A stretch of 64,000 bases of DNA from Lama glama (Eukaryota): contig CM052816.1 of assembly GCA_028534125.1 (NCBI GenBank), forward strand, positions 65,288,001 through 65,352,000, written 5' to 3'. Shown here piece by piece: positions 4,113 through 6,559 of this stretch. Each line of letters opens with the position of its first letter. Position 1 is the first letter of the stretch. Below the pieces are notes generated by a model. It did not search any database. It was given only the letters and a program-made list of their open reading frames with translations, and was not told where the DNA came from. The translations under genes were made by a program, and so were the position numbers.

Positions 4113-4462
4113 TGTATTAGTTTTCCAAGGCTACCACAACAAATTATCACAATATAGATGACTTTAAGCAACAGAAGTTTATTCTCTCACAGTTCTGGAG
4201 ACCAGAAGCCTGAAATCAAGGTGTCAGCAAGACTTGTTCCTCCTGGAGGCTTTAGAGGAGGTTCCCTTTCTTGTCACTCTCCTAGCTTCTGATGACTCTG
4301 GGCGTTCCTTGGCTTGTGGAGGTGAAACCATCATCTCTGCCTCTGTCATCATATGCCTTTTCTCTCTGTGTTTCTCCTCTTCCTTTATCTTCTATTCTAA
4401 GGGCACATCATTAAATTTAAGGATCACCCTAGTTCAAGATGCTATCTCAAGATCCTTAACTT
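4113..4462 (-). mobile_element. MaLR MLT1 (MLT1B/C-like) solo LTR, left piece (3' part of the LTR), interrupted by the SET retrocopy
   Basis: Begins tgtattagttttccaaggctacc...acagaagtttattctctcacagttctggagaccagaagcctgaaatcaaggtgtcagca, typical of MLT1; the consensus resumes after 6466. Confidence 0.85.
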
Positions 4463-4685
4463 TTTTTTCTTTGTGTACACATTTAATTTTATTGTAACAA
4501 AGCAACTTGTACACTTTTAACGTTTAAAACTGAGCATCATCTTTCCTTTCCAGTGAAACAAAAAGAAAAATTTAAAAATAAAACAGGAACAAAATTACAA
4601 TAGAGAATGTCAATTGCAAATAAGATCCTACAGGTTCTGCTGATTCTCCCATCGAGTGGCAGGGCTCAAGTCATCATTAGGAGAG

Positions 4686-5185
4686 NNNNNNNNNNNNNNN
4701 NNNNNNNNNNNNNNNNNNNNNNNNNNNNNNNNNNNNNNNNNNNNNNNNNNNNNNNNNNNNNNNNNNNNNNNNNNNNNNNNNNNNNNNNNNNNNNNNNNNN
4801 NNNNNNNNNNNNNNNNNNNNNNNNNNNNNNNNNNNNNNNNNNNNNNNNNNNNNNNNNNNNNNNNNNNNNNNNNNNNNNNNNNNNNNNNNNNNNNNNNNNN
4901 NNNNNNNNNNNNNNNNNNNNNNNNNNNNNNNNNNNNNNNNNNNNNNNNNNNNNNNNNNNNNNNNNNNNNNNNNNNNNNNNNNNNNNNNNNNNNNNNNNNN
5001 NNNNNNNNNNNNNNNNNNNNNNNNNNNNNNNNNNNNNNNNNNNNNNNNNNNNNNNNNNNNNNNNNNNNNNNNNNNNNNNNNNNNNNNNNNNNNNNNNNNN
5101 NNNNNNNNNNNNNNNNNNNNNNNNNNNNNNNNNNNNNNNNNNNNNNNNNNNNNNNNNNNNNNNNNNNNNNNNNNNNNNNNNNNNN
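4686..5185. other. Assembly gap (500 N)
   Basis: Run of exactly 500 N inside the SET retrocopy 3'UTR. Confidence 1.
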
Positions 5186-5508
5186 TTCCAGCAGAGCTAA
5201 GGGAGCAGAAGGTTTTTCTTTTTTCCCACAGAGCATGGTGGTGTTGATTCCATAAAGTTTTTGTTAAGACAGGAAGGGATAAAAATGAATTTGGAACAGA
5301 AAGGGGTAGAGATTCTTTTCCCACTGAATTCTGCTCAAGGTATTTCCCCCCAAAACAAGATGAGAACCATGGTAAAAAGGAGAAAAGAGACCTCAAAAAC
5401 AGGGCGACTGAGCACAAGAGGAGAAAAAAAAAAAAATAAAAAGACTGCAATTTGCTCCCAGGGACTGGAGAAAATTTTTAAAAAAGGTTGGAATCCATCA
5501 GTGTTCCG

Positions 5509-6384
5509 TTAGTCATCTTCTCCTTCATCTTCCTCTCCTTCCTCCCCCTCATCATCATCTTCATCTTCTTCACCTTCATCCTCATCCCCTTCTTCATCAA
5601 TATCTTCTAATCCTTCTTCTTCATCATCATCATCATCTTCTTCTCCTTCCCCTTCCTCATCATCCATGTCAGGAACCAAGTAGTACTGCAATGGATTTGG
5701 CCAAATATCATCTTTGATGACCTCTCCTAACTCATCAGCACCTGCATCAGAATGATCAGTAAACCAGGTGAAGAAGCTCTCTGGTTCCTCATGCTGTCTC
5801 TTCCTGCTGGCTTTATTCTGTGTTTGACTTGAACGTTTCGTCAGATCCTTTCCAGATTTCCATTTGATTTCAGTGGACTTTGAAGATGGATCACCACTCT
5901 CATTCAGATGAAATTCTTTGGAGAGAATTTTATTTTCGAAGTAAGGATTTTCATCAAAATAAAAATCTATTCCGTAACCTGATTTAATATCTTCAAATTC
6001 TGTCACTTCAACTCTTGTCAAATAATGCAGCGCCTCTTCATCCTCCTCCCCAAGCAGTGCAGACACTTGTCGATGGTTGACAAATGTTGTTACCCAAAAA
6101 TTTGGGATTTTGGCAATCAATTCCGACCTCTTCTGAAAAAATGGTTGGCGGAGTTTGTTGTATTTCTGTTCTACTTTCAAAATCTCCTCACTGGCTTGTT
6201 CATTAAGTCTGTCTATTTCATTTTGTACTTCATCAATATGTTCAATTGCTTCCTGTTGTTCTTTTTCTTCCATTGGCAAGTTCAGAGATGTCGATGTTCC
6301 CTCCGGCCTGGGGGCAGGAGTCAGTCTCGGTTTCTTCGGTTTCTTGGCTTGAGTCGGAAGTGCAGACTGGTATTTGGGGGCCAT
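5509..6384 (-). CDS. SET: Intact ORF for a SET nuclear proto-oncogene / TAF-I alpha / I2PP2A-like protein (NAP-family histone chaperone), 291 aa, retrocopy
   Basis: Starts ATGGCCCCCAAA (MAPK.., alpha-type N-terminus); [47 protein letters not shown] domain and full acidic tail ending EGEDD-TAA; no stop or frameshift; expression unknown. Confidence 0.85.
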
Positions 6385-6449
6385 GCTGTGAGAAAAGCCA
6401 AGGACCTAACCTAGTGGAGATGCACGTCGAGAGAGCTGGGAGAACTAAC

Positions 6450-6559
6450 CTCAAGATCCTTAACTTAATTGCATCTACAAGATCCTTTTCCAAATAAGTT
6501 CACATTCATGGGTTCCAGGTGGACGTATCTTTCATGGGGTCAATTTTCAATCGACTACA
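6450..6559 (-). mobile_element. MaLR MLT1 solo LTR, right piece (5' part of the LTR)
   Basis: ctcaagatccttaacttaattgcatctacaagatccttttccaaataagttcacattcatgggttccaggtggacgtatct...tcgactaca continues the MLT1 consensus to its terminus. Confidence 0.85.

Follow-up and report, generated by a model that had tools for sequence, protein, structure and literature searches.

An open SET-alpha retrocopy antisense to PDE4D in the llama genome is probably a young processed pseudogene

Results

A SET-alpha retrocopy with the marks of L1-mediated insertion

We analysed a window of 64,000 nt from Lama glama (G000:C1:65288001-65352000), and positions below are counted from its first base. On the minus strand, the open reading frame at 5509-6384 encodes 291 amino acids and has no stop and no frameshift, which agrees with the intact, intronless SET-alpha frame reported in a first-pass annotation of this DNA. 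All seven parental introns are absent from the coding sequence (CDS), and the eight joined parental exons are collinear with the copy. The locus has the following features, listed from the 5' side of the retrocopy onward and ending with its surroundings:

6450-6466, minus strand: 5' copy of the target site duplication (TSD), 17 bp, with the L1-type cut at 6466/6467 (17/17 identity; YYYY/RR consensus, PMC4859970)
6449-6449, minus strand: untemplated G, probable reverse-transcribed cap (parent has C; PMC4859970)
6385-6448, minus strand: SET-alpha 5'UTR, 64 nt (2/64 mismatches to the parent)
5509-6384, minus strand: intronless SET-alpha ORF, 291 aa (H5Y, K38M, P105R, R138G, six synonymous changes and one in-frame Glu codon lost relative to the parent)
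5186-5508, minus strand: proximal 3'UTR piece (5/323 mismatches and a 1-nt deletion relative to the parent)
4686-5185, no strand: run of 500 Ns in the 3'UTR, read as an assembly gap with a true length of ~250-340 nt (N content, parent, older copies)
4469-4685, minus strand: distal 3'UTR piece with AATAAA at 4488-4493 (1/217 mismatch to the parent)
4463-4468, minus strand: poly(A) remnant of six As, eight with the first two TSD bases (parent comparison)
4446-4462, minus strand: 3' copy of the TSD, 17 bp (17/17 identity)
4250-6563, minus strand: old interspersed repeat split by the insertion, tested limits (repeat matches; contiguous flanks elsewhere)
36251-37151, plus strand: CpG island and first coding exon of a long PDE4D isoform (protein matches; more PDE4D exons on the same strand at C1:65.93-66.13 Mb)

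The TSD copies match at all 17 positions, as had been claimed, with a chance expectation of ~8e-8. The plus-strand cut site, ACTT/AA, agrees with the L1 endonuclease consensus YYYY/RR (PMC4859970) at 5 of 6 positions, which supports the earlier reading of the cut as close to the L1 endonuclease site, and the AATAAA is present where it had been annotated. The A-tail is short, and its six As are absent from the parent. This tail had been described as interrupted; however, the parental match at the 3' end runs through ...CACAAAG, so the "interrupting" G is a parental base, and we rejected an interrupted poly(A) as a sign of age. At the opposite end, one untemplated G separates the TSD from the parental sequence. 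An extra 5' G is a mark of the reverse-transcribed cap in full-length L1 and SVA insertions (PMC4859970), and the G at 6449 is probably such a cap. The 5'UTR, first estimated at about 65 nt, measures 64 nt against the parent. "Full-length", also from the first-pass annotation, is correct at the 5' end and as far as the proximal poly(A) site (~1.8 kb), and is incorrect with respect to the human-type SET variant of 2,863 nt (PMC9679398).

Intron loss, TSD, L1-type cut site, A-tail and untemplated 5' G together uphold the identification of the element as a SET (TAF-I alpha) retrocopy, and with all the hallmarks of the class it is a member of the processed retrocopies made by L1. The anatomy itself is read directly from the DNA; L1 as the agent of insertion follows from these established hallmarks. 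Processed pseudogenes and recent full-length retrocopies made by L1 (PMC4859970, PMC9435743) likewise have no introns, a TSD, a YYYY/RR-type site, an A-tail and an untemplated 5' G, with a ~99% identical parent in the same genome. We see no substantive difference from them; the frame here is still open.

The parent gene fixes the ends of the transcript that was copied

The parent is a multi-exon SET gene (G000:C26:62548523-62558128) with eight GT-AG exons and an 879-nt CDS collinear with the retrocopy. Its beta first exon is separate and is absent from the copy. The 5' end of the retrocopy corresponds to a parental position 29 nt downstream of where a TATTTAAA begins, and the parent's TATA-like box was not carried along. 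Two older SET copies, L002 and L028, begin within 2 nt of the young retrocopy's start base, and each also has a G just before the start of its match. The agreement in 5' start and the cap G indicate that the retrocopy begins at the true SET-alpha start site and that the promoter was left behind. The retrocopy pins both this start site and the proximal poly(A) site; at least two older copies reused them. SET-alpha predominates in embryonic stem cells (PMC5639460, PMC12887537), in keeping with a probable origin of the copy in the early embryo or germ line.

An apparent assembly gap interrupts the 3'UTR

The 500 Ns in the 3'UTR went unmentioned in the first-pass annotation. The parent carries its own run of 500 Ns, which ends at the base homologous to the retrocopy gap, and older SET copies have ~250-340 nt at this position; on these grounds the run in the retrocopy looks like, and apparently is, an assembly gap. 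From the start of the contig after the gap to the first copy-parent difference is 199 nt, and the parental contig before its gap likewise runs 199 nt past the last difference, a pattern from which we infer that a 200-mer graph collapsed two near-identical copies. At ~99% identity the retrocopy is a mapping trap that can steal SET reads, and it seems to have disrupted the assembly at both loci.

Eleven small contigs by the gap (L036-L046) represent two or three haplotypes on the retrocopy background. Within 119 nt they differ from the parent at 0, 3 or 5 further sites, and each of the six possible pairings with a later variant occurs. A single diploid cannot hold so many combinations, so some of the contigs are false paths, and we used the gap haplotypes as a sensitivity test only. 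The further differences form a tight cluster of same-type transitions at positions where the older copies agree with the parent; allelic variation, cDNA editing or false assembly paths could each account for it. A second run of 500 Ns, at 37152-37651, cuts the end of the PDE4D first exon beside a CCTT-rich repeat and is probably another gap.

The insertion split an old repeat 30 kb upstream of a PDE4D first exon

The upstream flank is a dispersed repeat: all 40 scored candidates match it, one being the locus itself and the remaining 39 matching at 74-89%. Ten other repeat copies were examined (two look like duplicates), and in seven of them the flanks are contiguous around a single 17-mer, which is the structure of an empty site. 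We take the host repeat to be of the MLT1/MaLR-LTR type.

The plus-strand ORF at 36639-37151 is a first exon of PDE4D, judged by best matches with that name, and presumably of the PDE4D4 type; a search for PDB matches to it returned none. In a protein search of the genome the remaining PDE4D exons were found on the same strand. Two open stretches on the minus strand, 16341-17058 and 29196-29579, are antisense to PDE4D as well, and we take their translations to resemble the C-terminus of LINE-1 ORF2. The first-pass annotation had described the retrocopy as antisense and inside PDE4D. The orientation stands, with the first exon 30 kb away on the opposite strand. "Inside", by comparison, would be accurate only if PDE4D7-type exons lie further upstream, which the isoform order in a figure legend of PMC2929239 suggests.

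The encoded protein would be a SET-alpha variant with two changes at conserved core residues

The predicted protein belongs to the NAP family (PF00956, E 3e-34). Over aa 39-240 it is identical to human SET (7mto) at 198 of 202 residues, differing by P105R, R138G, V153I and the first aligned residue; I153 is common to ruminant SET. SET-alpha shares 95% identity with the SET of ruminants and whales. The NAP domain, the alpha-type N-terminus and the acidic tail are all present, which by sequence places the putative product in the SET-alpha family. With SET/TAF-I alpha it shares the alpha N-terminus, backbone helix, earmuff domain and acidic tail, and 287 of its 291 residues match the parent. Unlike the SET-alpha gene, the retrocopy is intronless, lacks the alpha promoter, has the four missense changes and encodes one Glu fewer.

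Conservation was assessed in 171 aligned SET-family proteins out of 281 fetched, the rest being mostly PDE4 or short. Position 105 is Pro in 164/168 and position 138 is Arg in 158/165 (~96-98% conserved), and the conservation extends to fish and shark orthologues. Y5, M38 and R105 occur in 0/171 of these proteins, and G138 in one. By alignment numbering the two residues are Pro90 and Arg123 of SET-beta, both in the earmuff domain (aa 79-225 of SET-beta), which binds histones and DNA (PMC9679398). An AlphaFold model had a mean pLDDT of 48.6, too weak to judge P105R or R138G. An exact look-up in a collection of 15 billion proteins did not return the retrocopy protein, and no camelid-named SET is among the homologue matches and cluster members listed (for the two large clusters, 15 of 404 and 15 of 333 members).

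Extra SET copies are commonplace. SETSIP and the mammalian "protein SET-like" annotations are likewise additional SET-derived open frames: by hand count, ~30 of the 120 homologue rows listed have "SET-like" names, and one is named SETSIP (P0076). We take SETSIP to be a SET retrocopy. Relative to these putative SET copies, the llama copy is an independent insertion, as its copy-specific residues are nearly absent among the aligned proteins.

Low divergence makes an open frame unsurprising

The first-pass annotation had proposed alignment to the parental mRNA and comparison of dN, dS and 3'UTR divergence. That alignment shows differences at 10/873 CDS sites (the four missense and six synonymous changes), plus the lost Glu codon, and at 8/604 UTR sites, plus a 1-nt deletion, for an overall divergence of ~1.2-1.3%. 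Taking a mammalian rate near 2e-9 per site per year, we estimate that the retrocopy is roughly 5-7 million years old, uncertain twofold. The earlier annotation had rightly named youth versus constraint as the open question, and this divergence mostly favours youth. Under neutrality, the probability of no stop is 0.59-0.80 for 6-10 substitutions, and that of no frameshift is 0.38-0.68 under assumed indel ratios; an open frame is therefore expected by chance with a probability of ~0.25-0.5. The intact, slippage-prone acidic tail had also been offered as a hint of constraint. We rejected this argument, because the tail did slip, losing one Glu codon, and triplet slippage keeps the frame.

Pairwise dN/dS (4N:6S, ~0.2) mixes branches and was set aside. 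As an outgroup, L002 (89% identical) agrees with the parent rather than with the copy at 9 of 10 CDS sites. The polarised copy branch has four missense and five synonymous changes; the synonymous change at A216 was moved off the branch, where two outgroups disagree. Five of the eight UTR differences were taken as copy-branch changes. We then estimated omega under three site-count models combined with five neutral references. With synonymous sites only, omega was 0.24-0.34 (one-sided P 0.034-0.095); with UTR only, 0.71-0.78 (P 0.43-0.49); with synonymous sites and UTR pooled, 0.48-0.56 (P 0.16-0.24); and with the gap haplotypes added to the pool, 0.36-0.49 (P 0.047-0.15). The 95% interval included 1 in 15/15 tests, and one-sided P was below 0.05 in 2/15. 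Constraint like that on the parent (omega = 0.01) was rejected (P <= 1e-4). Missense changes on the copy branch number 4 in ~650 sites (0.6%), versus 5/604 (0.8%) in the UTRs, and two of the four lie in the variable 38-aa alpha N-terminus, a post hoc observation. The Bayes factor for omega of 0.05-0.5 versus 1 was 0.8-4.6 with pooled synonymous sites and UTR, and 0.4-0.5 against UTR alone. The missense deficit may thus be read as a real but weak, non-significant hint of constraint. We assumed priors for function of 2-5%, guided by PMC4772013; with Bayes factors of 1.5-2.5, the resulting probability of function runs from very slight to, at its upper end, still unlikely.

A possible promoter is a CpG island 30 kb away

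Within 200 nt upstream of the retrocopy there is no TATA-like word, and the upstream 1-2 kb has a GC content of 36% and a CpG o/e of 0.21-0.25. The only CpG island in the window, at 36251-37000, is ~30 kb upstream. The majority of expressed retrocopies have acquired new promoters, and in human about half of these promoters are linked to CpG islands (PMC4772013). With no promoter visible nearby, expression of this copy is less likely, yet possible given how often new promoters are gained. A pyrimidine tract and a CAG stand one base before the ATG, by eye a possible splice acceptor, and this acceptor-like sequence is ancestral. Speculatively, transcripts that start divergently at the PDE4D CpG island would extend toward the copy in its coding orientation, and splicing could join them to the CAG. 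Among the public sequencing runs listed, 22/24 contain part of the locus words, with a best share of 0.31 and none reaching half, which is no evidence either way.

Discussion

We think it probable that the SET-alpha retrocopy is a young processed pseudogene. LINE-1 machinery would have reverse-transcribed a capped, spliced SET-alpha mRNA ending at the proximal poly(A) site, and target-primed reverse transcription would have put the copy into the old repeat, antisense to PDE4D, probably in the early embryo or germ line, where alpha is the prevailing isoform. The promoter would have stayed at the parent. The copy would then have drifted by ~1%, its frame open merely for want of a stop or frameshift so far, and no selected protein would be made from it. 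This explanation is favoured by the low divergence, at which a frame often stays open by chance, by a copy-branch missense rate close to the UTR rate, by the rejection of parent-like constraint, by P105R and R138G as radical changes at near-invariant core residues, by the missing TATA-like word and low upstream CpG o/e, and by L002, an older SET-alpha copy with the same mRNA ends that is now dead. Synonymous changes that exceed missense changes (5 versus 4), with the synonymous-only omega of 0.24-0.34 and the omega of 0.36-0.49 for the pool with gap haplotypes, may be a weak hint against it, as may the post hoc placement of two missense changes in the variable N-terminus. Also on this side, most retrocopies show some transcription (PMC4772013). 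As a pseudogene, the copy would have little importance beyond that of a dated presence/absence marker.

A nascent retrogene is the best-surviving alternative and is unlikely. Here the copy would be under relaxed purifying selection, would have recruited a promoter such as the PDE4D CpG island, and would make a SET-alpha variant outside pluripotent cells, the cell type for which the parent's alpha promoter is tuned. The open ORF, the copy-branch counts with their synonymous-only omega, the pooled Bayes factor of 0.8-4.6, and the CpG island together with the ancestral acceptor-like sequence are consistent with this idea, and SET copies can keep an open frame over long periods, as does a paralogue in 6/6 baleen-whale proteins of its cluster. 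However, every 95% interval for omega includes 1, the Bayes factor against UTR alone is 0.4-0.5, two radical changes sit at near-invariant core residues, and no promoter can be seen close to the 5' end. The prior is low too: of several thousand retrocopies in a species, 194-280 are selected retrogenes (PMC4772013). The copy has an intact parental reading frame in common with the selectively preserved mammalian retrogenes of Carelli et al. (PMC4772013); it differs from them in a dN/dS not significantly below 1 and in being known from one genome's sequence. Among the open-access papers listed in our searches, none deals with this SET retrocopy.

In a more specific form, a lineage-specific SET-alpha retrogene would be in the making with a borrowed promoter, most concretely that of the PDE4D CpG island, spliced to the acceptor by the ATG; we hold this to be slightly less probable still. 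If it were true, tissues such as brain or testis would gain a histone chaperone and PP2A inhibitor of the pluripotency type with two altered earmuff residues (P105R and R138G), which could form heterodimers with parental SET and retune it. Heterozygous truncation of SET is a cause of intellectual disability (PMC11267991), and a constrained and expressed copy would offer a rare view of a dosage-sensitive developmental gene as it acquires a new expression domain, by a process that is itself known.

It is very improbable that the insert matters only as DNA or non-coding RNA, by altering transcription or splicing of long PDE4D isoforms or by placing SET-antisense RNA in PDE4D pre-mRNA. Its position, antisense to PDE4D and 30 kb before a first exon, fits such a role, and a PDE4D transcript crossing the insert would include ~1.8 kb roughly 99% complementary to SET mRNA. 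The effect on PDE4D is nonetheless hypothetical, retrocopies often insert into introns (808/1911 in canids, PMC9435743), and the retrocopy's poly(A) signal does not lie on the PDE4D strand. Finally, an assembly artefact, in which parental mRNA-like or mis-scaffolded pieces were joined across the gap, can practically be dismissed: there is a 500-N run inside the element, and the small contigs beside it exceed the haplotype combinations possible in one diploid, but the TSD copies to either side of the gap match fully, the flanking sequences are the two halves of one repeat, and the copy has 18 substitutions relative to the parent, with each junction on a contiguous stretch.

Other SET copies in the llama and in whales

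Beside the young processed retrocopy, this genome contains at least six older SET fragments or copies. L002 (G000:C1:68213016-68214479, minus strand), 3 Mb away, is an older SET-alpha retrocopy that is 89-90% identical to the parent, has 12 indels and stops, and uses the young retrocopy's 5' start and 3' poly(A) site. The old fragments L028 (C7), L019 (C10), L033 (C2), L034 (C13) and L035 (C14) comprise a piece of the alpha first exon, a CDS copy at 72% and three copies of the 3'UTR. Five intronless ORFs with a NAP domain, L003-L007 (C27, C14 twice, C3 and C22), encode 315-460 aa with 37-41% identity to SET; they are probably TSPYL-family genes.

A SET-alpha-type paralogue is open in bowhead, gray, Rice's, blue, right and minke whales (P0016, P0143, P0145, P0146, P0147 and P0148). 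These proteins have 16 changes from blue-whale SET in common, among them W97G, L110P and the loss of T99, and a narwhal fragment (P0144) shares the N-terminal ones. Whales evolve slowly. As an older copy open in multiple species, this paralogue is, from its protein sequences, a better candidate for a retrogene than the retrocopy in the window. In hippopotamus, a protein named "dynamin-3 isoform X4" (P0013) combines a SET-alpha match with a dynamin domain and is annotated as joined to DNM3 exons, which is either a chimera or an annotation error.
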